Counted from the first letter of the stretch, positions 20,145 to 58,936 are shown. The stretch is DNA of 64,000 nucleotides from Anaerolineales bacterium (GCA_035291465.1 DATDRZ010000085.1:20927-84926); one strand, 5' to 3'. A program made the numbers and translations. The notes: generated by a model not told the origin, from the sequence alone.

Positions 20145-21080
20145 TTACCGAGATTGGTGGTGTTTTTCTTTCTCCTCTTCCGGTTTGGGCAATTCGTCCA
20201 CTGCCGGGAGCGAAGCTCGATGTCTTGCAAAATCCTTCCACGGGTCTCCTTTGCGCCCCAAGCGCTTGAAGATATTCTCCATCGTATAGCCTTGCGGGTC
20301 AAGTTTGGATTCGGATAGCTCGTCCCAATCCAGGGGCGCGGCTACCGGGGCGCCGGGCTTAGGACGCAGCGCATAAGGCGCCACGCTGGTCTGGGCATAC
20401 TCGTTGCGCAAATAATCCACAAAGACCCGCCCACGCCGTTTCTCCTTGCGCACTTTGGTGGTGAACTTCGGATCCTCGGCCTCGAGGTTTTGCGCTGCCG
20501 CCTTGGTGAACTCCTTCACGATGTTGTAATCGTGCTCAGGCTTGATGGGGCAGGCCACGTGCAGTCCCCGTGACCCAGTGGTCATCACGAAACAAGTCAG
20601 GCCCAGATATTCCAGCAACTTGCGCAGGTCGTGGGCCCCTTCCTTGACTACCGCAAAATCGTCGTCAGAGGGATCCAGGTCGAAGACGATCTTGTCCGGC
20701 TTACGGATGGCCTCCGTTGTACTCAGCCAGACGTGAGGCGTGATCACGGCCAGGTTGGCTAAATAAACGAGAGTTACCGCGTTGTTGCACACGATCTCAT
20801 TTTGCTTTGAACCATCTTCGAGAGTGATGCGCACGGTTTCAATGAAATCCGGGAAATAGACAGCGGCTTCCTTTTGATAAAAGCCCTCCTCATCGATGCC
20901 ATCGGGAAAACGTTGTAGCGCCAGCGGTCTGCCCTTCATGTGCGGCAGCATGGTCTCGGCAATGCGTTGGTAATAATCCACGACTTCGCTTTTGGTAATC
21001 CCGTCGTCGGGAAATAACTCCTTGTCGGCGTTGGTGATTTCAATTTTGTGTCCGCCAATTTTCTTGAATGTCTTGCTCAC
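20145..21080 (-). CDS. Stand-alone LigD-type primase-polymerase domain protein (NHEJ PolDom)
   Basis: 311 aa with a GTG start. It has segments typical of the LigD Pol domain (LQRFPDGI, IVFDLDP, TTGSRGLHV, VFVDYLRN, APYALRP). Confidence 0.75.
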   Translation of the reverse strand: MSKTFKKIGGHKIEITNADKELFPDDGITKSEVVDYYQRIAETMLPHMKGRPLALQRFPDGIDEEGFYQKEAAVYFPDFIETVRITLEDGSKQNEIVCNNAVTLVYLANLAVITPHVWLSTTEAIRKPDKIVFDLDPSDDDFAVVKEGAHDLRKLLEYLGLTCFVMTTGSRGLHVACPIKPEHDYNIVKEFTKAAAQNLEAEDPKFTTKVRKEKRRGRVFVDYLRNEYAQTSVAPYALRPKPGAPVAAPLDWDELSESKLDPQGYTMENIFKRLGRKGDPWKDFARHRASLPAVDELPKPEEEKEKHHQSR

Positions 21081-22000: not shown

Positions 22001-25000
22001 ATGTCAAAGCAGATCGCAATCGTAGACGGCAATGAGGCGGTGGCCTCGGTGGCTTACCGCACCAACGAAGTCATTGCCATTTATCCCATTACCCCCGCCT
22101 CCGCCATGGGCGAGTACGCCGACCTGTGGGCGGCCGAAGGCAAGCCCAACGTCTGGGGCTCGGTGCCCTCGGTGATCGAGATGCAGAGTGAGGGCGGCGC
22201 CGCCGGCGCCGTGCACGGCGCCCTGCAGGCCGGGTCGCTGGCCACCACCTTCACAGCCTCCCAGGGCTTGCTACTGATGATCCCCAATATGTATAAGATC
22301 GCTGGGGAGCTGACCCCCGCCGTCTTCCACATCGCCGCCCGCACCATCGCCGCCCATGCCCTGTCCATTTTCGGCGACCACTCCGACGTGATGGCCGCCC
22401 GCCAGACCGGCTGGGCGCTCCTGGCGTCCAATTCGGTGCAAGAAGCGCACGACCTGGCGCTGATCGCGGAGGTAGCCACTCTTGAAGCGCGAATCCCGTT
22501 CCTTCACTTCTTCGACGGCTTTCGCACCTCGCACGAGATTGGCAAGATCAAACTAATCACCGACGAAATTATTCGCAAGCTGCTGCCTGAAGACAAAATT
22601 CACGAACACCGCCAGCGCGCCCTGACCCCCGAGCGCCCGGTGGTGCGCGGCACAGCGCAGAACCCGGACCATTTCTTCCAGGGACGCGAGGCGGCCAATC
22701 CTTACTACGCGGCCTGCCCCGAGATCGTGCAGAAGGCTATGGATGCCTTCGCCGCCGAAACCGGGCGCCGCTACAACCTCTTCGATTACTACGGCGCACC
22801 CGGTGCCGAGCGCGCTATCGTGCTGATGGGCTCAGGCGCTGGCGCCGTCGAAGAAGCGGTGGATGCGCTACAGACGCGCGGAGAAAAAGTCGGCGTGCTA
22901 AAGGTTCGGCTGTATCGACCGTTCTCCCCCGAACATTTCCTGGCTGCGCTACCTCCCACCGTGCGCTCCCTGGCTGTGCTGGACCGCTGTAAGGAGCCCG
23001 GCGCGGTGGGTGAGCCGCTGTATCTGGATGTGCAATCCGCCTTCCGCGAGGCGCCGCTGGGAACCTGGGCACCCAAAGTTATCGGCGGGCGTTTTGGACT
23101 GTCCTCAAAAGAATTCACTCCGGCGATGGCTGCGGCCGTCTTTGCCGAACTGGGCAAGGCCGAACCCAAGTTGCACTTTAGTGTTGGCATCAAAGATGAT
23201 GTCAGCCACCAGAGCTTGGATGTCGACCCCGAATTCTCTGCCGACGATGCGACCGCACACCAAGCGATATTCTTCGGCCTGGGGTCGGATGGCACGGTGA
23301 GCGCCAACAAAGCCAGTATCAAGATCATCGGTGAAGAGACCGATAAATATGTTCAAGGATACTTCTCATACGACTCGAAAAAAGCCGGGACGGTGACCGA
23401 GTCGCATCTGCGTTTCGGTGGCAATCCGATCCGCTCGACCTATTTGGTTGAACGGGCCAATTTTGTGGCTTGCCATCAATTTGGCTTCCTAGAGAAGTTC
23501 GATGTGCTTGAGAAGATCGATAAAGGTGGAACGTTCTTGCTCAATAGCCCATTCAATGCGAAGGAAGTTTGGGAAAACCTGCCTCGTCTCACGCAGGAAC
23601 ATATCATCGACAAGAAATTGAAATTCTATGTGATCGATGCCAACAAGTTGGCCGACGAGATCGGTCTGGGCGGGCATATCAACACGAGTTTGCAGACCTG
23701 CTTCTTCCATATAACAGGAGTGATTCCAGAAGAATTGGCGTTGGGCAAGATACGCGAAGCTATTCATAAGAGTTACGGTAAGAAGGGCGAAAAGGTGGTC
23801 GCGCAGAACATTGCCGCCGTCGATCAGGCGCTGGCGCGACTGGAAAAAGTGGAAATACCACAGGGAGCCGATAGCCAACGCGAACTGCGTGGCGCTGTTT
23901 CCGAGCAAGCGCCGGAATTCGTGCGCAGCACCCTTGGCGCCATCATCGAACGCCGTGGCAACTCGCTGCCGGTCAGCGCCTTCCCCGTGGATGGCACCTT
24001 CCCGGTTGGCACTACCCAGTGGGAGAAACGCGCCCTGGCTGACGAGATCCCGGTCTGGGATCCGCAGGATTGCATCCAGTGCGGCAAATGCGTATTCGTT
24101 TGCCCGCATGCGGTGATCCGCGAAAAAGTGTATGCGGCCGCAGACCTGGTTGGCGCGCCGGTGTCATTCCAGTCGGTTGAGGCGCATTGGAAAGAATTCC
24201 CCGATCAGATCTACACGCTGCAAGTCTCGCCGGAAGATTGCACCGGTTGCACGCTGTGCGTGGATGCCTGCCCCGTGACCGACAAAGTGACCGGCAAGAA
24301 ACCGATCGAAATGCAACCCATCGGCGCGCACCGAGAAACCGAAAAGGTCAACTGGGAATATTTTCTCACGCTGCCGGAAGTGGATCGCAGTGTGATCAAG
24401 CTGAATACCGTCAAGAATTCACAACTCTTGCAGCCGCTGTTCGAGTTCTCCGGCGCCTGCTCTGGTTGCGGTGAGACACCTTATCTCAAGTTGATCAGCC
24501 AGCTGTACGGCGAACGAGCCATCATCGCCAATGCAACCGGCTGCTCTTCTATTTATGGGGCCAACCTGCCTACCACGCCGTGGGCCAAGAACCGCGAGGG
24601 CCGCGGTCCGGCCTGGGCAAACTCGCTGTTCGAAGATAACGCTGAGTTCGGCCTGGGCATCCGTATCTCGCTGGATAAGCAGGAAGCCATGGCGCGTGAA
24701 CTGCTGGCCAAGCTATCGGTCGCCATTGGCCCGGAACTGGTGCAGCGATTGCTGACGGCAGATCAATCCTCCGAGGCTGGCATTTCCGAGCAGCGATTGC
24801 GGGTGGCCGAGCTCAAAGGTCGCCTAAGCGGTGTTGACAACCCTGAAGCCCGCAACCTTATGCAGCTTGCCGACGCCCTGGTGAAGAAAGTCGTGTGGAT
24901 CGTAGGCGGCGACGGCTGGGCCTATGACATCGGCTACGGGGGCCTGGATCACGTGCTGGCTTCCGGGCGCAAAGTAAACATTTTGGTCATGGACACCGAG

Positions 25001-25558
25001 GTGTATTCCAACACCGGCGGTCAGGCCTCCAAGGCCACCCCGCGAGCCTCCACGGCGCGCTTTGCTGTCAACGGCAAAGAAACTGCCAAGAAGAACCTGG
25101 GTCTGTTGGCGATCAGTTATGGCAGCGTGTATGTGGCCAGCATCGCCATGGGCGCCAGCGACGCGCAGACCATGAAGGCCATCACCGAAGCTGAGGCCTA
25201 CAATGGGCCTGCGCTGGTGATCGCTTACGCGCACTGCGTAGAACACGGCATCGAGATGACCAAGGGCTTGCAGGAGCAGAACCTGGCCGTGGAATCCGGC
25301 ATGTGGCCGCTCTACCGATACAACCCGGATTTGGCCGCTCAGGGCAAACCCGCGCTGATCCTGGATTCCAAAGAGCCTAGCATCTCGGTGAAGGATTACA
25401 TCTACAACGAGAACCGCTACCGCCGCCTGGTGGCCGCCGACGAAGAGCGCGCCGAGCAACTGCTCGCCAAGCTGGAAAAGGATGTCCAGCGCCAGCGAGC
25501 CACCTTCAAGCGTTTGGCGCAGGGCGAGGAATTGCAGAAGGCGGTTGTTAACAACTAA
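22001..25558 (+). CDS. nifJ: Pyruvate:ferredoxin (flavodoxin) oxidoreductase, single-polypeptide type
   Basis: 1185 aa. Two ferredoxin-type motifs (CIQCGKCVFVCP, CTGCTLCVDACP) and a TPP-binding region (GGDGWAYDIGYGGLDH). Confidence 0.9.
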   Translation: MSKQIAIVDGNEAVASVAYRTNEVIAIYPITPASAMGEYADLWAAEGKPNVWGSVPSVIEMQSEGGAAGAVHGALQAGSLATTFTASQGLLLMIPNMYKIAGELTPAVFHIAARTIAAHALSIFGDHSDVMAARQTGWALLASNSVQEAHDLALIAEVATLEARIPFLHFFDGFRTSHEIGKIKLITDEIIRKLLPEDKIHEHRQRALTPERPVVRGTAQNPDHFFQGREAANPYYAACPEIVQKAMDAFAAETGRRYNLFDYYGAPGAERAIVLMGSGAGAVEEAVDALQTRGEKVGVLKVRLYRPFSPEHFLAALPPTVRSLAVLDRCKEPGAVGEPLYLDVQSAFREAPLGTWAPKVIGGRFGLSSKEFTPAMAAAVFAELGKAEPKLHFSVGIKDDVSHQSLDVDPEFSADDATAHQAIFFGLGSDGTVSANKASIKIIGEETDKYVQGYFSYDSKKAGTVTESHLRFGGNPIRSTYLVERANFVACHQFGFLEKFDVLEKIDKGGTFLLNSPFNAKEVWENLPRLTQEHIIDKKLKFYVIDANKLADEIGLGGHINTSLQTCFFHITGVIPEELALGKIREAIHKSYGKKGEKVVAQNIAAVDQALARLEKVEIPQGADSQRELRGAVSEQAPEFVRSTLGAIIERRGNSLPVSAFPVDGTFPVGTTQWEKRALADEIPVWDPQDCIQCGKCVFVCPHAVIREKVYAAADLVGAPVSFQSVEAHWKEFPDQIYTLQVSPEDCTGCTLCVDACPVTDKVTGKKPIEMQPIGAHRETEKVNWEYFLTLPEVDRSVIKLNTVKNSQLLQPLFEFSGACSGCGETPYLKLISQLYGERAIIANATGCSSIYGANLPTTPWAKNREGRGPAWANSLFEDNAEFGLGIRISLDKQEAMARELLAKLSVAIGPELVQRLLTADQSSEAGISEQRLRVAELKGRLSGVDNPEARNLMQLADALVKKVVWIVGGDGWAYDIGYGGLDHVLASGRKVNILVMDTEVYSNTGGQASKATPRASTARFAVNGKETAKKNLGLLAISYGSVYVASIAMGASDAQTMKAITEAEAYNGPALVIAYAHCVEHGIEMTKGLQEQNLAVESGMWPLYRYNPDLAAQGKPALILDSKEPSISVKDYIYNENRYRRLVAADEERAEQLLAKLEKDVQRQRATFKRLAQGEELQKAVVNN

Positions 25559-25566
25559 ACGGATAA

Positions 25567-25628
25567 CCACGGAGACACGGAAACACGGAGCTTTTTAATG
25601 TTTTCTCCGTGTCTCAGCGCCTCCGTGG
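25567..25628. repeat. Repeat-derived stem-loop between convergent nifJ and polB; second copy of the 24-nt motif seen at 918-941
   Basis: CCACGGAGACACGGAAACACGGAG (25567-25590) differs by 1 nt from 918-941. Downstream CTCCGTGTCTC (25605-25615) and CTCCGTGG (25621-25628) are complementary to parts of it. Confidence 0.6.
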
Positions 25629-25649
25629 TTTGTTTTTGTATTTAGGCGG

Positions 25650-27956
25650 TTAGACAGAACGGGGTTTGCGGGAAAATGAGTGTCGAGCAATCTGCTCCAA
25701 CAGGGGCCAGCGAATCGGCGTTCCGCGCACATAATCCTCAGGCGCCCAGTAGACGCCTTGATTCTTAAGCCAAGCCGATAGCACATCTTTTGGCACCCCG
25801 AGCGGTGACAAGACCTCGTCGGCGGCCCTCACCAGCTGCTCGCAGTACCAGTCCGTGTCCAGGTCTACTCGTTGGTCTGCGCGCACCAGATGCCAGGAAA
25901 GTGAATGTGGTGCATTGGTCACACGCAGGAATTCCACACTTTGCCCGGCGCGGACTATCTTGCCCTCCGCCTCCAGTTGACGGGCAGCCGCGCTGGCAGG
26001 GGAGATGACTCTGAAATCTTCGATATCTCGGCTCAAAGTTTGGGAAATTACTAACTTCTCAAGGGGTACTTCTTGGTTGGCGATTTTTGAGTAGTGCGAC
26101 TTAAAGAAATTAACTAAGCGGGGAATGAGCGTACGCAGTCCATCCAGATCGGCCTTCGCAGCCATCACCCGAATCGCCTTCATTTGCACGTCGGCAATAT
26201 ACAAAGGGGTGTCACCGCGGCGAGCCATGATGCCCCGGCACTTCAGCTCTCCGTTTTCAAAGACGCCGAAATAGCAATTGGGCACGGGCACGGCCTCGTT
26301 TTGCTTCGAGGGCAAGAACGCGATCCAATGTAACACGCCCTCAAGATCTACCTTGAGGCCAGTGCGATTTTTGATCTCGGCCAACAAATCGTCTAATTGC
26401 GCTTGACTGTGCCCGTCTACGCGTGCAAACAGGCTGTCTACATAGACATGCAATACCTCGAAGCCGGCGTCCTCGGCGGCCTCTTTCGCGTGCAAGATCA
26501 CATCGCGGCTGACGGCGTTGATCGCCTCGTGAGCTTCGATGCTGCCAATGCGGTTGCCGCTGAAACCCTGGTAGCCGTAAGAAACCCAGCCAAGACCCTT
26601 GAGGAATTCGTACGCAGTCTGAAGGTATTCCTTGTCATAGCCCAGGGTGTTGCCAGCTTCTAACAGGTCTTTGGCCGCAGCGCGTTTGGCCAGGATCGGC
26701 CTGAGCACCTCCGCCACAATGCCGGGTCGATCCTGATCAATCGGCGCACCAATGCCGGGCGCTATTCGGTTATTCGCTCCCACCGCGCCCACGGTTTCCG
26801 CCGAGATGTTCCAGCCGGTCATGATGTGCGGGTACATGGAAAAAAAGTCGATCTCTGCGACGTTGGCATGCAGGCCGGTGATCGGCTTGAAGATGACGCC
26901 GCCATTATCGGCGGCGATCATTTGGGTGGCGCTCTTGAAGCGTTCACGCTGTTCTTTGCGGATCGGGATCAGAATGCCTTTTTCCAGTGAGGCGGTTACC
27001 TGCATGCCTACGAAAGCGCCGCCCGCGCTGCGCCGGGCAGCATTCTGGATGGGCAGATTGCTTAAGCGCGCAGTTTCGAAGGTGCCGCCGGACCCCCAAT
27101 CCTTGAAGGCCATGGAGTTCTGCGGGTCGAGGTGCAGGCGCCCGAAAAGCAGGGTTTGCTGGTCACGATGCACCAGCCTGCCATAGCTTTCGAATTGGTT
27201 GGCTTCCACTCGCAGGGGCGGGCGGGTCTTGTCGCGGTTGGGATTGAACGGTATATGCGCTGCCTTCGCAGTGGAGAACAAATAAGGAAACATCCACGCA
27301 TCTCCATAACGAGTGCGAATGATGTCGGGATCGTACAGTTCAACCCACTCCGCGAAACGCCTCACCAGGCCAGGCGGGTCTTTCGTGCCAAGAGTTTCTG
27401 TTTTATTCCCAAAGCTGACGCGAAGGGAGGGAGGCAGAGACTTGTAGGGTGAGCCGGTGGGTTCCACTTCCAACGTACGCAGCTCAGGCAGACGGGGTTT
27501 TAAGCTCCACTTGTTGTCCTGGGTCGCAATTTTCGTAATTCGATTTTGTCCGTCGGCCCACAGTTTCGAAAAGGCAAGCGGAAATGTTTTGGTGGCGACG
27601 AAGTAGTGAACCGGCAAGGCCAGATCGGCATTGTAGTAATCCAAGCCGGGGAATAAACCGTGCAGCTTGCGAAATATTGATCGTTGCACTGCGCCGTTGG
27701 GAACCGTGATGGCCACCACGTCAATGTCGCCGTGAAAGAGGTGCTTGCGCTTCACTGTTTGGAACTGGAGCCGGCCCTTTTTTAAATATCCGCAAAGATC
27801 AGTCAGCTCATGTTGATCGCCAGCTATGTAGAAGGCAATCGACAGGTCCTGCACGAAACGCAAGCGGCGCCCATCTTCGCAAACCAACCAGACAACCGCG
27901 CCCTTACCCTTGTCGGCGTAAACGTCCAGTATCCAGCCTGAATATTCAGTGGCCAT
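25650..27956 (-). CDS. Family-B DNA polymerase (archaeal-type architecture) with degenerate 3'-5' exonuclease motifs
   Basis: 768 aa from ATG 27956; the track start at 28187 overlaps the upstream gene in another frame. N-terminal WILDVYADKG...FYIAG. Motif A DFFSMYPH. Motif B region KGLGWVSYGYQG. Motif C reads YVDS instead of DTDS. KxY region CRGIMARRGD. ExoI reads LEVE instead of FDIE. ExoII reads YGDAWMFPYL instead of NGxxFDxPYL. No YxxxD ExoIII segment was found. Confidence 0.85.
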   Translation of the reverse strand: MATEYSGWILDVYADKGKGAVVWLVCEDGRRLRFVQDLSIAFYIAGDQHELTDLCGYLKKGRLQFQTVKRKHLFHGDIDVVAITVPNGAVQRSIFRKLHGLFPGLDYYNADLALPVHYFVATKTFPLAFSKLWADGQNRITKIATQDNKWSLKPRLPELRTLEVEPTGSPYKSLPPSLRVSFGNKTETLGTKDPPGLVRRFAEWVELYDPDIIRTRYGDAWMFPYLFSTAKAAHIPFNPNRDKTRPPLRVEANQFESYGRLVHRDQQTLLFGRLHLDPQNSMAFKDWGSGGTFETARLSNLPIQNAARRSAGGAFVGMQVTASLEKGILIPIRKEQRERFKSATQMIAADNGGVIFKPITGLHANVAEIDFFSMYPHIMTGWNISAETVGAVGANNRIAPGIGAPIDQDRPGIVAEVLRPILAKRAAAKDLLEAGNTLGYDKEYLQTAYEFLKGLGWVSYGYQGFSGNRIGSIEAHEAINAVSRDVILHAKEAAEDAGFEVLHVYVDSLFARVDGHSQAQLDDLLAEIKNRTGLKVDLEGVLHWIAFLPSKQNEAVPVPNCYFGVFENGELKCRGIMARRGDTPLYIADVQMKAIRVMAAKADLDGLRTLIPRLVNFFKSHYSKIANQEVPLEKLVISQTLSRDIEDFRVISPASAAARQLEAEGKIVRAGQSVEFLRVTNAPHSLSWHLVRADQRVDLDTDWYCEQLVRAADEVLSPLGVPKDVLSAWLKNQGVYWAPEDYVRGTPIRWPLLEQIARHSFSRKPRSV

Positions 27957-28302
27957 TTGGGGCGCCCCTAGGCAGGAAGATCTCCGTGCGCAGTTTGCCG
28001 AGTTCTGTGGAAAACTCTTTGCGACTTTTTTCCAGTTCACGCCCGAAGTCCATGCGCTGGTTTTCGATCTCGGCTTCAAGCCGCAATACTTGCTTGTGTT
28101 TTTCCAGTAACAGGGCAAGCAAGAACCCGATGCCAGGCAGCAGGTTAGCAGCATAACCGGCGGCGGGCAGATGTTGGTTGGCTTCATCGAGTAAAGCGTC
28201 TAGCGCCAACTGGTCGGACTTACGCAAGGCCCGTTTGAACGGCTGTACATAGGCCAGGAAGCGCTGATAGTTCTGGGTGACGGTAGAAAGCGTATGGCCC
28301 AT
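27946..28302 (-). CDS. Small helical protein of unknown family (middle gene of the SOS-box cassette)
   Basis: 118 aa. Its start lies 2 nt after the upstream stop and its end overlaps the polB ATG by 11 nt. It has a central hydrophobic stretch (LLPGIGFLLALLL) and a charged heptad-like C-terminal half (LRLEAEIENQRMDFGRELEKSRKEF). Confidence 0.65.
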   Translation of the reverse strand: MGHTLSTVTQNYQRFLAYVQPFKRALRKSDQLALDALLDEANQHLPAAGYAANLLPGIGFLLALLLEKHKQVLRLEAEIENQRMDFGRELEKSRKEFSTELGKLRTEIFLPRGAPNGH

Positions 28303-28304
28303 TT

Positions 28305-28895
28305 CTAGATTCCCGGCAAGGCCGGTTGGATAACCAGGTTGATCTGGTCGAAGGGTTGGAAGTAAAAGCGCTCGTCGGAGTTCTGCTCAACCAGTTTAAG
28401 CAGATCTGGTCGTGCGGGATCGGGATTAGCGCTGATGAGAACCGGTGCGGCCTCGCTAAGCTGATGAATGCGCTTGATGCACTTTTGCAGTAGCAGGGTG
28501 ACTTCCTGGGGCGTCAGGTCCTCTTCGTAGAAGGATTCCAGCATATCGGTGATCACGATGGGCAGGGGGCTGGGCTCCAGCGAGGCGAGCACATCCTTCA
28601 TCTGGTAGCAGGTTTCGGCCCGCGAGACCAGGATACGGTCCATGATCTCGTAGACCCTGCCGACCTGTTCGCCCATTATTAGCGGCAGGTGTTCGAAGGA
28701 GATGCGGTTGCCGCCGACGATTACCTGAACCGCTCCGCGTATCCCCAGGCGGTCGACGAACTCCTGCATGGCGGCGTGCAAAACGTCGGCATCCCCCTGG
28801 AACAGGTACACCGAGCCCTGGCTCAGGGGCACCATCTGGCGCACGCTGGAAAGCGCAAATGGGCCAGGAATTTGGGTGACCGCCGAGCTGCTCAT
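28305..28895 (-). CDS. RecA/RadA/Rad51-fold protein lacking a Walker A P-loop (ImuA-like in logic)
   Basis: 196 aa. RILVSRAETCYQ resembles the Rad51/RadA ARAxNxxHQ segment. A hydrophobic strand plus Asp (LPIVITDMLESFY) sits at the Walker B position. There is no GxxxxGK[ST] anywhere; the equivalent position reads VYLFQGDADVLH. Confidence 0.6.
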   Translation of the reverse strand: MSSSAVTQIPGPFALSSVRQMVPLSQGSVYLFQGDADVLHAAMQEFVDRLGIRGAVQVIVGGNRISFEHLPLIMGEQVGRVYEIMDRILVSRAETCYQMKDVLASLEPSPLPIVITDMLESFYEEDLTPQEVTLLLQKCIKRIHQLSEAAPVLISANPDPARPDLLKLVEQNSDERFYFQPFDQINLVIQPALPGI

Positions 28896-28910
28896 CTCTA
28901 GGGGTTAGAG

Positions 28911-28939
28911 ATGATAATAGAACTTATGTTCTATGTCAA
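28911..28939 (-). promoter_or_regulatory. Sigma-A-type promoter with embedded LexA (Cheo-type) SOS box
   Basis: On the minus strand: TTGACA (28939-28934), a 17-nt spacer, TATCAT (28916-28911). The perfect palindrome GAACATAAGTTC (plus-strand GAACTTATGTTC, 28920-28931) lies within the spacer. The ATG at 28895 is 15 nt downstream of the -10. Confidence 0.7.
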
Positions 28940-29188
28940 GATGGGACTGCTTGACTGGTCCCTGATGCTCAAAGGAGGAGGTCAAGTTGTTGTTCCTGAT
29001 AACAGGGGTGGGGTCGTACATCTTTGACAAACCTCGGACGCTTAGAAGAGCGCTTTTTTCAGCCCGAAGTTGAAGCTGAAAGAGAAACCTTTTAAGATTC
29101 TTTTGTAGTTGAGTCATGATCGCCTCTTTTATCTCCCTCTAGCTAAACCCACATTTGGCAATATAGCAAAAAAAAAAGTTTAGAAGGA

Positions 29189-30313
29189 TCATCCCCCTAG
29201 CACTTCCCTCAACCGATCTAAGAATCCGCTTTCGCGCGGGTGGGCTTCGGTGCCCATAGTGGCGGCGAGCTGCTCGAAGAGCTTGCGCTGTTCGGCGTTC
29301 AGCTTGTTGGGGATGGATACGCTGACCATCACCAACTGGTCGCCACGGCCGGAGCCGCGCAGGTGCGGCACACCCTTGTTGCGCATGCGCAGCACCTTTC
29401 CGGGCTGAACGCCCGTGGGGATGCTGAGCTCGGCGGGCCCGTCGACCGTGGGCACCTCAACGTCCGCGCCCAATGTGGCCTGGGCCACGTTGATGTCCAG
29501 GTCCAGCAAGATGTCGTCATCGCGGCGATGAAAGTATTTGTGCGGGCGCACGTTGAGCGCGATGTATAGATCGCCTTGAGGGCCGCCGTTTAGACCCGGC
29601 TGCCCTTCCCCATTCAGACGCACTTGGGTTCCGGAGTCCACGCCTGCGGGGACAGCCACTTTCTTCTTAACGGTTTTGCGTTCCAAGCCACGACCATTAC
29701 AAACTTTGCAAGGTGAACCGACGATGGTGCCAGTGCCGCGGCAGTTGGGACAGGTGGTCACCTGCACCATGGAGCCGAAGATGGTCTGGCGCGAAGCGCG
29801 CACTTCGCCGCTGCCGCCGCAGGTGGGGCAGGTCGATTTGCTGGTGCCGGGCTCGGCGCCCTCACCATCGCAGCGGGTGCAGACCTCGTCGCGAGTGAAT
29901 TCGACTTCCTTCTCCGCGCCGAAGACGGCTTCTTCGAAATCGAGGGTCAAGTTGTATTGCAGATCTGCGCCACGGCGAGGTGCGTTGCGCTGCTGGCGCC
30001 CGGAGCGGCGACCGAATCCGAAGCCAAAGAGCTCCTCGAAGATGTCGCCCAGATCCACGTTGGTGAAATCGGGCATGCCGCCGAAGCCGTCCAGGCCGGC
30101 ATGGCCGTAGCGATCGAAAGCAGCGCGCTTTTGCGGGTCGGCCAAGACGGCGTAAGCTTCGTTAAGCTCCTTGAACTTTTCTTCAGCATCGTGGGACTTA
30201 TTGACGTCGGGGTGATATTGACGCGCCAAACGCCGGAAAGATGACTTGATCTCTTCCGGCGAGGCGTCGCGATGGACACCCAAAATATCGTAGTAGTCGC
30301 GTTTAGTGGCCAA
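29189..30313 (-). CDS. dnaJ: Molecular chaperone DnaJ
   Basis: 374 aa with J-domain and HPD (YHPDVN), a G/F-rich linker and four CxxCxG repeats. Confidence 0.95.
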
Positions 30314-30358
30314 AGTGTGAATTAATAAATGGGCGGGTAAAAACCCCGCCCATTTGAA

Positions 30359-32266
<1,908 letters not shown>

Positions 32267-32279
32267 GTTCTCTCCTCAA

Positions 32280-32846
32280 TTACTTCGCAACTTTAACCGC
32301 CGCCGGGCGCAGCACGCGCTCCGCCAGCAGGTAACCCGGCCGCAGCACTTCGATGATCGTGCCGCTTTCGTGGTCGGGGCTATGTTCTTGCGTGACGGCT
32401 TCATGCCTATTCGGATCGAAATGCTCGCCTAGAGGATCCATTCGGGTTAGGCCTTCGCTCTCCAGATAAGCAATCAGCTTCTTATATATCAATTCGATGC
32501 CTTGCGCCCATTCGGCGCCAGCGTCCTCTTTCGGAGCAGTTTTGAGTGCGCGTTCGAGATCGTCGACGACCTCCAAATAGCGCTTGATGACGCGCCCGCG
32601 CACTTCGGCGGTTTGCTGCTCCTGTTCGCGGGCCAGGCGTTTTTTGTAGTTAGCGAACTCCGCCTGGGCGCGCTGCCAGCCGTCCAGATGCTCGGCGGCC
32701 TTGGCTTCAGTCTCGGCGAGCTTTTCTTGGAGAGCGATCAAATCCTTATTGCCATCCGGCGACTGGTCGTCTTTAGTTGCCTCGGCCTCGGCCGCAGCCT
32801 CTTCTGGTTTTTCTTTCTCAATTTCTTTATGTTTATCGCTCATCAT
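32280..32846 (-). CDS. grpE: Nucleotide exchange factor GrpE
   Basis: 188 aa. It has an acidic N-terminus, a coiled coil and a C-terminal beta domain, and sits between hrcA and dnaK. Confidence 0.9.
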   Translation of the reverse strand: MMSDKHKEIEKEKPEEAAAEAEATKDDQSPDGNKDLIALQEKLAETEAKAAEHLDGWQRAQAEFANYKKRLAREQEQQTAEVRGRVIKRYLEVVDDLERALKTAPKEDAGAEWAQGIELIYKKLIAYLESEGLTRMDPLGEHFDPNRHEAVTQEHSPDHESGTIIEVLRPGYLLAERVLRPAAVKVAK

Positions 32847-32856
32847 TCAATAATTC

Positions 32857-33897
32857 CTAATCGTGAGTGTTCAAAGATTCGGTCACCATCTCGCTGAGCA
32901 GGCCAGCCACATAATCCACTGCAGACACAGCTCGTCCATAGGACATGCGAATGGGACCGAGCACGCCCACGTAACCGCTGGCGGCTTCCGGCGCGCCATA
33001 GCGGGCCACCACCAGTGAAAAGTCGTTCAGCTCTTCCCAGCGACCCTCGCCCCCGATGAGCACTTGCACGCCACCGATCTCGGCGCCGGTCATGGTTTGG
33101 GTGAGAAGCGTATCGAGTAGCGGGCGTTCTTCGAGCACGCGCAAAGCGCGCTGGGCCGCGTCGGCATCGCTGAACTCGGGCTCGGCAAGCACGTTGGTCC
33201 AGCCATCGTGATAGACCTCGCCGCCGAGGCCTTGTTCGAGAGCCTGAAACTCGCCTTTGATCAGCTTGAAAATTTCTTCGGCAAGTGTGCCCGTTTCTGC
33301 TGGGGGCGTGGTTAACGTGGAAATGGTAGCGCCGCGCAGATGATCGGTAAGTTGGCTGGCGGAGGCGCTCAGTTTTTCCTGACTGAAAGCTTCTTTGAGC
33401 ACCAGCATCTGCTGGATCACCTGGCCGCTTTCCAGCACCAGCACCATGAGCACCTGGCGACCAGCCGTTAGGATTAGCTCCAGGTGTTTGAAACGCGCTT
33501 GTTGGGATTTCGGCGTAGTAATCAGCGAGGCCGCTTTGGACTGCGCCGCCAGCACCGAGGCTGCCAACCGCATCCATTGCTGTACTTCGTGGCGGGCCTG
33601 GTAGAACTGGTGGCTGATCGTGTGCTTTGTGGATGCAGGCAGTTCCTGCCTATGCATCAACTCGCCGACGAAGAAGCGGAAGCCCTCTTCGGTGGGCACG
33701 CGCCCTGCAGAAGTGAACGGCTGGCGCAGGAAGCCGCTCTCGGTGAGCTCGAGCATTTCGTTGCGCACCGTGGCAGAACTCACATCGAGGCCGAATTGAT
33801 CGACCAGGTGCTTCGAGCCGACGGGTTGGGCATGCTCGACATATTCCTGGACAATTAGTCCGAGGATCAGTTTTTGGCGTTCGCTAAGGCGTTCCAT
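32857..33897 (-). CDS. hrcA: Heat-inducible transcription repressor HrcA
   Basis: 346 aa. N-terminal LSERQKLILGLIVQEYV...PVGSK wHTH. A CIRCE operator lies directly upstream. Confidence 0.9.
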   Translation of the reverse strand: MERLSERQKLILGLIVQEYVEHAQPVGSKHLVDQFGLDVSSATVRNEMLELTESGFLRQPFTSAGRVPTEEGFRFFVGELMHRQELPASTKHTISHQFYQARHEVQQWMRLAASVLAAQSKAASLITTPKSQQARFKHLELILTAGRQVLMVLVLESGQVIQQMLVLKEAFSQEKLSASASQLTDHLRGATISTLTTPPAETGTLAEEIFKLIKGEFQALEQGLGGEVYHDGWTNVLAEPEFSDADAAQRALRVLEERPLLDTLLTQTMTGAEIGGVQVLIGGEGRWEELNDFSLVVARYGAPEAASGYVGVLGPIRMSYGRAVSAVDYVAGLLSEMVTESLNTHD

Positions 33898-58263: not shown

Positions 58264-58536
58264 AAATTAATAGGCTCCCTCGTTATCTGGTCATGGTCAT
58301 TTCACCCTGCGCTTTAAACCACGCCTAGTAATCGCAAAAGAAGAACAATTAACGCGATCGTGGGCGAGATCAGCAACAGGATGATCAAAAGGATTAGGAA
58401 CTCTGCACTCATGAAATAAAGAACGAAAAAATTTGTTTTTTGTAACGCTCTTTCCAACCTTGCGAAGGCTGGACTTGTGAACAAGATTGATTCCAAGTCG
58501 AACCTTCGCAAGGCTTGTCATAAAAAGCCGCATTAT

Positions 58537-58573
58537 ATATTCCTTGACAGGAATATTCCTTTTGGGGTATATT
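58537..58573 (+). promoter_or_regulatory. ArsR-family gene promoter with overlapping palindromic operator; probably a leaderless transcript
   Basis: TTGACA (58544-58549), 18 nt, TATATT (58568-58573); the ATG at 58580 is 7 nt downstream of the -10. Perfect 12-bp palindrome AGGAATATTCCT (58549-58560), nested with ATATTCCT-TGAC-AGGAATAT (58537-58556). Confidence 0.6.
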
Positions 58574-58579
58574 AGAGGC

Positions 58580-58936
58580 ATGGACCCCGCAACTTTGGCC
58601 GCCCTGGCCGAACCCAATCGCCTGAAGATCGTTGAGTTCTTGCGCGACAAGCCGCGACCCGTCGGCGAAATCGCGGCCCGATTGCGGATTCGGCAGCCGC
58701 AGGTTTCCAAACATCTGCGCGTGCTGGCGGAGGCCGGAATCGTGGATATGCGACCGGCGGCCCAGCAGCGCCTGTACTATTTACAGCCCAAGCCGTTTCA
58801 GGAACTGGATAGGTGGCTGGATACATTCCGCCCGACCTGGGAAGCAAGGCTCGATACGCTTGAGGCCTTTTTGCAGGAGATGCAAGGCAAAGCCAAGAAG
58901 CCTGGAAGTCCCGAAGTCAGGAGATCAAAGACATAG
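58580..58936 (+). CDS. ArsR/SmtB family transcriptional regulator
   Basis: The start at ATG 58580 is preferred. LAEPNRLKIVEFL...VGEIAARLRIRQPQVSKHLRVLAEAGIV wHTH. Confidence 0.85.
   Translation: MDPATLAALAEPNRLKIVEFLRDKPRPVGEIAARLRIRQPQVSKHLRVLAEAGIVDMRPAAQQRLYYLQPKPFQELDRWLDTFRPTWEARLDTLEAFLQEMQGKAKKPGSPEVRRSKT

Follow-up and report, generated by a model that had tools for sequence, protein, structure and literature searches.

A Dpo2-type B-family DNA polymerase and the neighboring iRadA and PPB2 genes in an Anaerolineales bacterium: motif states, operon structure, and a conserved LexA-type box in the promoter

A 64,000-nucleotide stretch of DNA from an Anaerolineales bacterium (GCA_035291465.1, DATDRZ010000085.1:20927-84926), here called the window, encodes a 768-residue B-family DNA polymerase (polB2, positions 25650-27956 on the minus strand, stop codon included) in which the exonuclease motifs and two of the polymerase motifs depart from the canonical pattern. 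The question raised by this locus is whether such a protein can still be a polymerase and, if so, of what kind. A preliminary description, made from the DNA sequence, proposed that it was error prone or specialized, for example for lesion bypass, or else a noncatalytic scaffold. Profile, motif, and structure comparisons identify the window protein instead as a bacterial PolB2 (Dpo2-type), a member of a described family and not a new variant, encoded at the end of a three-gene operon, iradA-ppb2-polB2. We regard this operon, with a probability of about 85%, as the bacterial form of the PolB2 "mutasome," a damage-induced extender polymerase that does not proofread. Most of the functional information lies in the two partner genes and an SOS-type operator, none of which the preliminary description mentions. 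What our analysis adds to the published account of the family is modest: the conserved LexA-type operator embedded in the promoter, and details specific to this subclade. Its main value is correct annotation, since databases list the components of what we read as one damage-tolerance module as "DNA polymerase domain-containing protein" and "hypothetical protein," and PolB2 operons are widespread in Anaerolineae.

In 2008, Rogozin et al. (PMC2527604) described archaeal PolBs as "inactivated," along with a small group from bacteria. The Sulfolobus protein Dpo2 was studied by Feng et al. in 2020 and 2022 (PMC7390963, PMC8764526). Purified S. islandicus Dpo2 shows strong incorporation of nucleotides, low processivity, and no 3'-5' exonuclease activity that could be detected; its fidelity on undamaged DNA is high, and it extends mismatches and lesions efficiently (PMC8764526). 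Genetic work in the Sulfolobales found the PolB2 operon to be damage induced and required for damage-induced targeted mutagenesis. In the account of Timinskas, Timinskas, and Venclovas (2025), PolB2 is of archaeal origin, reached bacteria by a single transfer, and is encoded with iRadA, an inactivated RadA, and with PPB2, a small helical partner; their modeling gave a 1:1:3 PolB2:iRadA:PPB2 complex with a PPB2 trimer (PMC11791011).

Membership in this family is supported at several levels. A Pfam scan of the polB2 product returned PF00136 (E = 8e-23) and no match to the exonuclease model PF03104. The best solved relatives in a sequence search were the archaeal PolBs of Pfu, Tgo, and KOD (E = 1e-34), and a family profile search gave the Pyrobaculum PolB 5mdn as the best structure (E = 3e-75). 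The AlphaFold2 model (predicted local distance difference test, pLDDT, 87; predicted template modeling score, pTM, 0.80) superposes over its full length on archaeal PolBs, with template modeling (TM) scores of 0.68 to 0.74 and 5mdn as the best fold match in Foldseek (TM, 0.68); the N-terminal and exonuclease-like regions are therefore predicted to be folded. Among NCBIfam models, NF004416 (307 bits) ranks above NF004418 (274 bits) and both lie far above the PolB1/B3 models (141 bits or less) and the Pol II models (40 bits or less), an order also obtained for S. islandicus Dpo2 and for one euryarchaeal PolB2. The closest listed PolB2 is MCL5428619.1 from a Chloroflexota bacterium, which shares 81% identity with the window protein across its first 399 residues, the part of published PolB2s that the supplement of PMC11791011 supplies. 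The supplementary table lists that entry as a PolB2 of operon group 1a with "YVD" at 505 and the motif string FLKGLGWVSYGYQGF...HIYVDSLFA, and it gives YVD as motif C for the Anaerolineae operons of group 1a (PMC11791011). BLASTP against S. islandicus Dpo2 gave 28% identity (E = 5e-27) across motifs A to C, with YVD opposite IID.

The product of 25650-27956 begins MATEYSGW, and its homologues begin MATEYSGW or MVTEYSGW, that is, at the same Met, which supports the start at 27956; a longer mechanical open reading frame (ORF) extends to 28187, and the added stretch merely overlaps the upstream gene. Because the ORF is conserved over 768 residues and has hundreds of homologues, polB2 is a genuine gene and not a chance feature. 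Conservation of single residues, as cited below, was read from an alignment of 79 sequences, comprising the window PolB2 and 78 relatives from other genomes, with identity down to 37%.

The preliminary description had proofreading inactivated, and the profile and structure alignments agree: they yield no catalytic Asp/Glu set across the three Exo motifs. At ExoII, HMMER alignment to Pfu residues 189-243 sets the remnant DPDIIRTRYGDAWMFPYL (residues 209-226; 27279-27332, minus strand) against Pfu DPDIIVTYNGDSFDFPYL, with D215 opposite M222 and N210 opposite Y217. All 79 sequences have L, M, F, or I, and none has Asp, in column 222. Both the Asn and the Asp had been reported as lost, which holds, but 27279-27308 encodes YGDAWMFPYL, and the leading R ascribed to that span lies at 27309-27311, a slip of one codon. 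At ExoI, the remnant LEVEPT (residues 162-167; 27456-27473, minus strand) has E165 and T167 at the places of the catalytic Asp and Glu. LEVE itself (residues 162-165) had been located correctly at 27462-27473 but was read two residues out of register, as the family profile aligns FDIE of 5mdn with V164-E165-P166-T167. The ExoI columns vary within the family (E/S/A/R/K and D/N/E/T), and a conserved DxE is absent.

The ExoIII segment had been thought deleted between GRLHLD and ARLSNLPIQ, and we reach the same view. From GRLHLD (272-277) to ETARL (294-298) there are 17 to 29 residues, depending on the alignment register, against 73 between D259 and Q332 of Pfu; Tyr is absent from residues 266-300; and in the AlphaFold2 model strand 274-276 leads straight to helix 282-299. 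Alignment gaps and predicted secondary structure place the missing piece, some 50 residues relative to archaeal PolB, at the GRLHLD strand and the short linker that follows (residues 272-294; 27075-27143, minus strand), and the deletion of the ExoIII-bearing segment is estimated at about 45 to 55 residues. An ungapped alignment that puts Pfu D315 (ExoIII) on D277 was rejected, GRLHLD being the counterpart of the Pfu GRIHFD strand. Judged from the alignments and the fold model together, the PolB2 exonuclease domain is a folded remnant, predicted to be catalytically dead.

The state of the polymerase site bears on the alternative that survives best, albeit as an improbable one: that the protein is a catalytically inert PolB paralogue acting purely as a structural scaffold, as in the reading of Rogozin et al. 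(PMC2527604). Motif A, DFFSMYPH (residues 370-377; 26826-26849, minus strand), is intact in the alignment to Pfu, with the catalytic D370 present in all 79 sequences and the steric-gate Y375 in 78. In motif B, KGLGWVSYGYQGF (residues 453-465; 26562-26600, minus strand), Pfu KLLANSFYGY lies opposite KGLGWVSYGY: WV replaces the NS pair, and K453 and Y460-G461 are kept. K453 and G461 are invariant across the family, with V, W, or Y found at position 457 and T or V at 458. Motif C, VYVDSLF (residues 504-510; 26427-26447, minus strand), was aligned to Pfu and to IID of S. islandicus Dpo2. Its YVDS (505-508; 26433-26444) sets Y505-V-D507 opposite Pfu D541-T-D543, so that the first Asp is Tyr and the second is kept; column 505 is Y or N, never D, and D507 is found in 79 of 79 sequences. 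N560 is likewise invariant. For all three motifs these results bear out the preliminary description, which had given motif A as intact, motif B as lacking NS, and motif C as keeping a single Asp.

A scaffold would account for the replacement of the first motif C Asp, the motif B NS pair, and the KKRY lysines, and inactivation was proposed on these same grounds (PMC2527604). Yet D370, D507, and K453 are invariant and Y375 nearly so down to 37% identity, which is the pattern of an active site; Sulfolobus Dpo2, which also lacks the first Asp, is a robust polymerase; and the fold model shows an intact palm, fingers, and thumb. The scaffold hypothesis, which the preliminary description had given as its alternative, is now disfavored and has been largely overturned by the activity of Dpo2. 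By alignment, PolB2 retains both essential metal-binding aspartates (D370 and D507) as well as the lysine of motif B and the tyrosine of the steric gate. The polymerase site thus looks alive: selection has preserved its catalytic needs and fixed the noncanonical residues. As for what the enzyme would do, the suggested picture of a PolB with a remodeled site and no proofreading, specialized for something like lesion bypass, matches the known biology of the PolB2 family. The term "error prone" should give way to "extender," given the high fidelity of Dpo2 on undamaged DNA.

The published modeling also assigns to a PolB2 loop an iRadA-binding motif resembling the Rad51 oligomerization motif, followed by a D(K/R) motif (PMC11791011). 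From BLASTP against S. islandicus Dpo2 and the AlphaFold2 model, the putative counterpart of these beta-alpha and D(K/R) motifs in the window protein is the loop at residues 331-353 (26898-26966, minus strand), its role being suggested by that work. The loop comprises strand 335-337, F340-K-S-A343, helix 343-349, and then A-D350-N-G-G, with a dip in pLDDT. P331, E338, and D350 are invariant, the last within ADxGG. The 253-DK-254 of S. islandicus Dpo2 (MADKGG) lies opposite AADNGG, so the residue after D350 is Asn in the window. An initial assignment of the D(K/R) motif to R241-D242-K243 was dropped, as the BLASTP alignment points to D350-N351.

The two genes upstream of polB2 lie on the same strand in the order iradA-ppb2-polB2, from 28895 down to 25650. 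The iradA gene ends 2 bases ahead of the ppb2 start, and the ppb2 stop overlaps the polB2 start by 11 nucleotides (ATGGCCACTGA). This is the only order reported for bacteria, in which it is said to be invariable (PMC11791011). A scan of one genome per species found relatives of polB2 in at least 585 genomes; loci were compared in the best 80 of these, nearly all from Chloroflexota and mostly Anaerolineae, one being labeled Deltaproteobacteria. An iRadA gene lies beside polB2 in 74 of the 80 loci and a PPB2 gene in 75. At one locus (L080, 337-1119, plus strand; the stretch includes masked or unknown bases), a single ORF matches both iRadA and PPB2 and represents a fusion; iRadA-PPB2 fusions have been described (PMC11791011).

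The iradA gene (28305-28895, minus strand) encodes a 196-residue protein with a RadA/Rad51 core and neither the N-terminal domain nor Walker A: the sequence contains no GK[ST], and FQGDADVL stands at the expected P-loop place. In the AlphaFold2 model (pLDDT, 83) the core begins near residue 28. The best PDB sequence match of a profile built from the window protein and its relatives is RadA, but only marginally (E = 0.06), so that the identity was settled by fold search, in which the top 50 PDB matches were all RAD51, DMC1, or RadA (probability, 1.00; E of about 1e-6). The same profile matches the published archaeal iRadA MBN29950 at 40 bits. The C-terminal tail (residues 186-196; 28308-28340, minus strand) is predicted to be disordered (pLDDT below 50) and ends IQPALPGI, a candidate variant of a beta-clamp-binding motif; Q190 in this tail is invariant, and most relatives end QLSLF, QPALF, PLRLF, or similar. 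Clamp motifs have been predicted in many iRadA members, though not in all (PMC11791011), and from its sequence clamp binding by the window tail is plausible.

The ppb2 gene (27946-28302, minus strand) encodes a 118-residue "partner of PolB2" (arCOG07300), a family described as small and helical, its N terminus forming a conserved MGRT arm (PMC11791011). It was identified by profile matches and by the arm, here MGHTL, which is invariant in its clade; relatives carry MGRT (59), MGHT (11), or MGKT (2). Among published PPB2 proteins, the profile matches MBN29952 (27 bits) and that of S. islandicus (14 bits), the MGRT arms and N termini being aligned. Pfam and NCBIfam scans returned no family match for either the 196- or the 118-residue protein. 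The PPB2 homologues in a large protein collection all carry the precomputed tag PF26485.1; a newer Pfam release seems to hold a family for PPB2.

These observations bear on a second alternative, still less probable than the scaffold, in which PolB2 works alone as a single-subunit repair polymerase, as Escherichia coli Pol II does, and the two small genes upstream have no connection with it. Purified Dpo2 is active on its own in vitro, and the complex is known from modeling only, both of which would suit such an enzyme. The overlapping or abutting stop and start codons, the persistence of the trio in about 74 of 80 genomes with differing flanks, the fusion, and the homology of both partners to published iRadA and PPB2 all argue otherwise. 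Pol II shares with PolB2 the B-family fold and, as an SOS-inducible enzyme that acts mainly as an extender and carries a C-terminal beta-clamp motif, it resembles the role proposed here; however, it has a canonical DTD and an intact exonuclease site (D156, E158, D229, Y331, and D335), the latter lost in the window PolB2. Pol II is a distant match to the family profile (E = 5e-13), confined to the polymerase domain.

The mutasome reading can be set out as a sequence of steps. The identities of the genes, the motif states, the operon and its conservation, the folds of two of the proteins, and the conserved operator come from the present analysis; that the enzyme is catalytically active and acts as an extender, the makeup of the complex, its binding to the clamp, and its control by LexA are inferred from the biochemistry and genetics of Sulfolobus Dpo2 and from the published modeling. 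In undamaged cells, LexA bound to a GAAC-N4-GTTC box between the -35 and -10 elements would block transcription. DNA damage would remove LexA, and the three translationally coupled genes would be expressed. PolB2 would then assemble with one iRadA and a PPB2 trimer, iRadA binding the PolB2 loop at residues 331-350 and the PPB2 N-terminal arm (MGHT) inserting near the active site, while a tether to the beta-clamp may come from the flexible tail of iRadA. The enzyme would extend mismatched or lesion-paired primer ends; excision being impossible, replication would go on, we propose, at the cost of mutations.

The promoter region gives the regulatory step its basis in the window. Promoter and motif scans locate a -35 element, TTGACA (28939-28934), the box GAACATAAGTTC (28931-28920), and a -10 element, TATCAT (28916-28911), on the minus strand, 16 bp upstream of the iradA ATG. 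This is the sole sigma-70-like site in 25300-29400, with 11 of 12 positions matched, and no exact GAAC-N4-GTTC occurs in the window other than GAACATAAGTTC, which lies inside the 17-nucleotide spacer. Of 71 related loci, 12 have an exact box upstream of iradA, several of them mutually close relatives, compared with an expectation of 0.015 per 220 bp. Over the window and the six loci closest to it (PolB2 identity, 47 to 79%), CTTGACATAGAAC-N4-GTTCTATTAT is nearly invariant while the surrounding sequence diverges: all seven share TTGACA and the same flank on each side of the box, and the GAAC half-site has one mismatch in three. Together these observations are good evidence that the box is a functional operator. 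GAAC-N4-GTTC has reportedly been assigned as a LexA motif to Dehalococcoides, a member of the Chloroflexi. Firmicutes and Actinobacteria have this palindrome as their LexA box (PMC3323433). Nearby lexA genes are noted for PolB2 operons in PMC11791011, apparently without mention of operators. The conserved promoter-operator offers a simple, testable handle on SOS control and stress-induced mutagenesis in Chloroflexota. A 70-residue ORF at 28905-29117 (minus strand) has no family match, contains the promoter and operator, and is probably not a gene.

Several findings weigh against the mutasome reading or its regulatory part. In the window PolB2, the KKRY motif is replaced by PNCY and motif B lacks NS, and for this reason its kinetic properties may differ from those of Dpo2. 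Our literature search found no bacterial PolB2 tested biochemically or genetically. The iRadA profile does not detect S. islandicus iRadA. The window iRadA tail closes with QPALPGI, unlike most relatives, whose ends are QLxLF-like, and in the window PPB2 the Arg3 of the published motif, a proposed DNA contact, is replaced by His. With E. coli LexA as the query, no lexA was found anywhere in the window, nor any closer than 6 kb to the operon at the 80 related loci; a weak match at 58487-58936 is an ArsR-type helix-turn-helix (HTH) protein and not lexA. In 27 of 70 loci, a GerE/LuxR-type HTH regulator (about 160 residues; PF00196, E = 8e-13) is encoded directly upstream of iradA on the same strand (for example, L009, 2179-2670, plus strand), a gene that the window lacks; GerE is enriched in the published table of PolB2 neighborhoods (PMC11791011). 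Because lexA is not nearby and GerE/LuxR regulators occur in many relatives, LexA control is predicted for this subclade only, and control of the operon may differ between clades.

Some of these departures can be read another way. It is possible, though we rate it at somewhat less than an even chance, that in this Anaerolineae subclade the PolB2 complex is a direct member of the LexA (SOS) regulon through the promoter operator and has in addition become a functionally shifted mutasome. The changes concerned would be His3 for Arg3 and a 30-residue C-terminal extension in PPB2, W457 and Y460 in motif B, and QxxLPG-hydrophobic for QxxLF in the iRadA tail. Were this so, the operon would be the first experimentally tractable bacterial B-family multisubunit SOS mutasome.

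Compared with known systems, the operon lies closest to the group 1a bacterial PolB2 operons (MCL5428617-19 and the Anaerolineae entries; PMC11791011), which have the identical gene trio and order. They share YVD at 505 and, in the closest listed entry, the motif B string GLGWVSYGYQGF, as well as the apparently dead exonuclease, an iRadA with a C-terminal tail and no Walker A, and the conserved PPB2 arm; we find no family-level differences of substance. The window subclade differs from most of group 1a in having MGHT for MGRT, a PPB2 about 30 residues longer (118 versus a median of 88), and, in the window, an iRadA ending in QPALPGI rather than QxxLF. It also differs in its regulatory surroundings, with no adjacent lexA, SRAP, or GerE gene and with the LexA-type box embedded in the promoter.

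The only experimentally tested members of the family, Dpo2 of S. islandicus and Saccharolobus solfataricus, are homologous to the window protein over motifs A to C, lack an exonuclease site, and are likewise encoded beside iRadA and PPB2 genes, although the archaeal order is PPB2-PolB2-iRadA. The first motif C Asp is replaced by a hydrophobic residue in both, Ile in Dpo2 and Tyr in the window. Besides the low overall identity (28%), the N-terminal/exonuclease region is far more decayed in Sulfolobus, and regulation and clamp differ, with Orc1-2 and PCNA for archaeal PolB2 and LexA (as predicted here) and the beta-clamp for the bacterial form. As working analogues, eukaryotic Pol zeta (Rev3-Rev7-Pol31-Pol32) and the E. 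coli Pol V mutasome (UmuD'2C-RecA) are also damage-induced, multisubunit extenders or bypass polymerases without proofreading, and Pol V recruits a RecA-family subunit through a filament-like contact. The accessory subunits of Pol zeta are unrelated, however, and the catalytic subunit of Pol V is of the Y family; the window PolB2 belongs with neither.

A recently acquired mobile-element or defense-island polymerase (casposon or protein-primed PolB) is very improbable, as the weak PADLOC match to a "homing endonuclease" model (67.7 bits) that might suggest it is confined to the PolB palm region (positions 1378-1604 of a 1,671-position model) and is treated as an artefact reflecting a PolB segment in a fusion model, while the flanks are housekeeping genes with dnaK-dnaJ synteny kept in close relatives, the G+C content of 0.556 matches that nearby (about 0.56), and no integrase or Cas1 was found among the neighbors scanned.

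Directly upstream of the polB2 operon and on the same strand lies the heat-shock operon hrcA-grpE-dnaK-dnaJ (29189-33897, minus strand), parted from it by a terminator-like hairpin and T-run after dnaJ found by sequence scan (29181-29199, minus strand); its adjacency through dnaK-dnaJ is retained in the closest relatives (L002 and L003). On the other side, a gene for a 1,185-residue pyruvate:ferredoxin oxidoreductase-like protein, identified from its translation (22001-25558, plus strand), converges on polB2, with about 90 bp between the stops. A stand-alone LigD primase-polymerase domain gene (20145-21080, minus strand; PF21686, E = 3e-91), for a nonhomologous end-joining repair polymerase, lies at a distance of about 4.5 kb from the polB2 operon. 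Among 64 related loci, 9 have a gene of the Asp23 family (PF03780) just downstream of polB2 on the same strand, as at L033 (8783-9184, plus strand).

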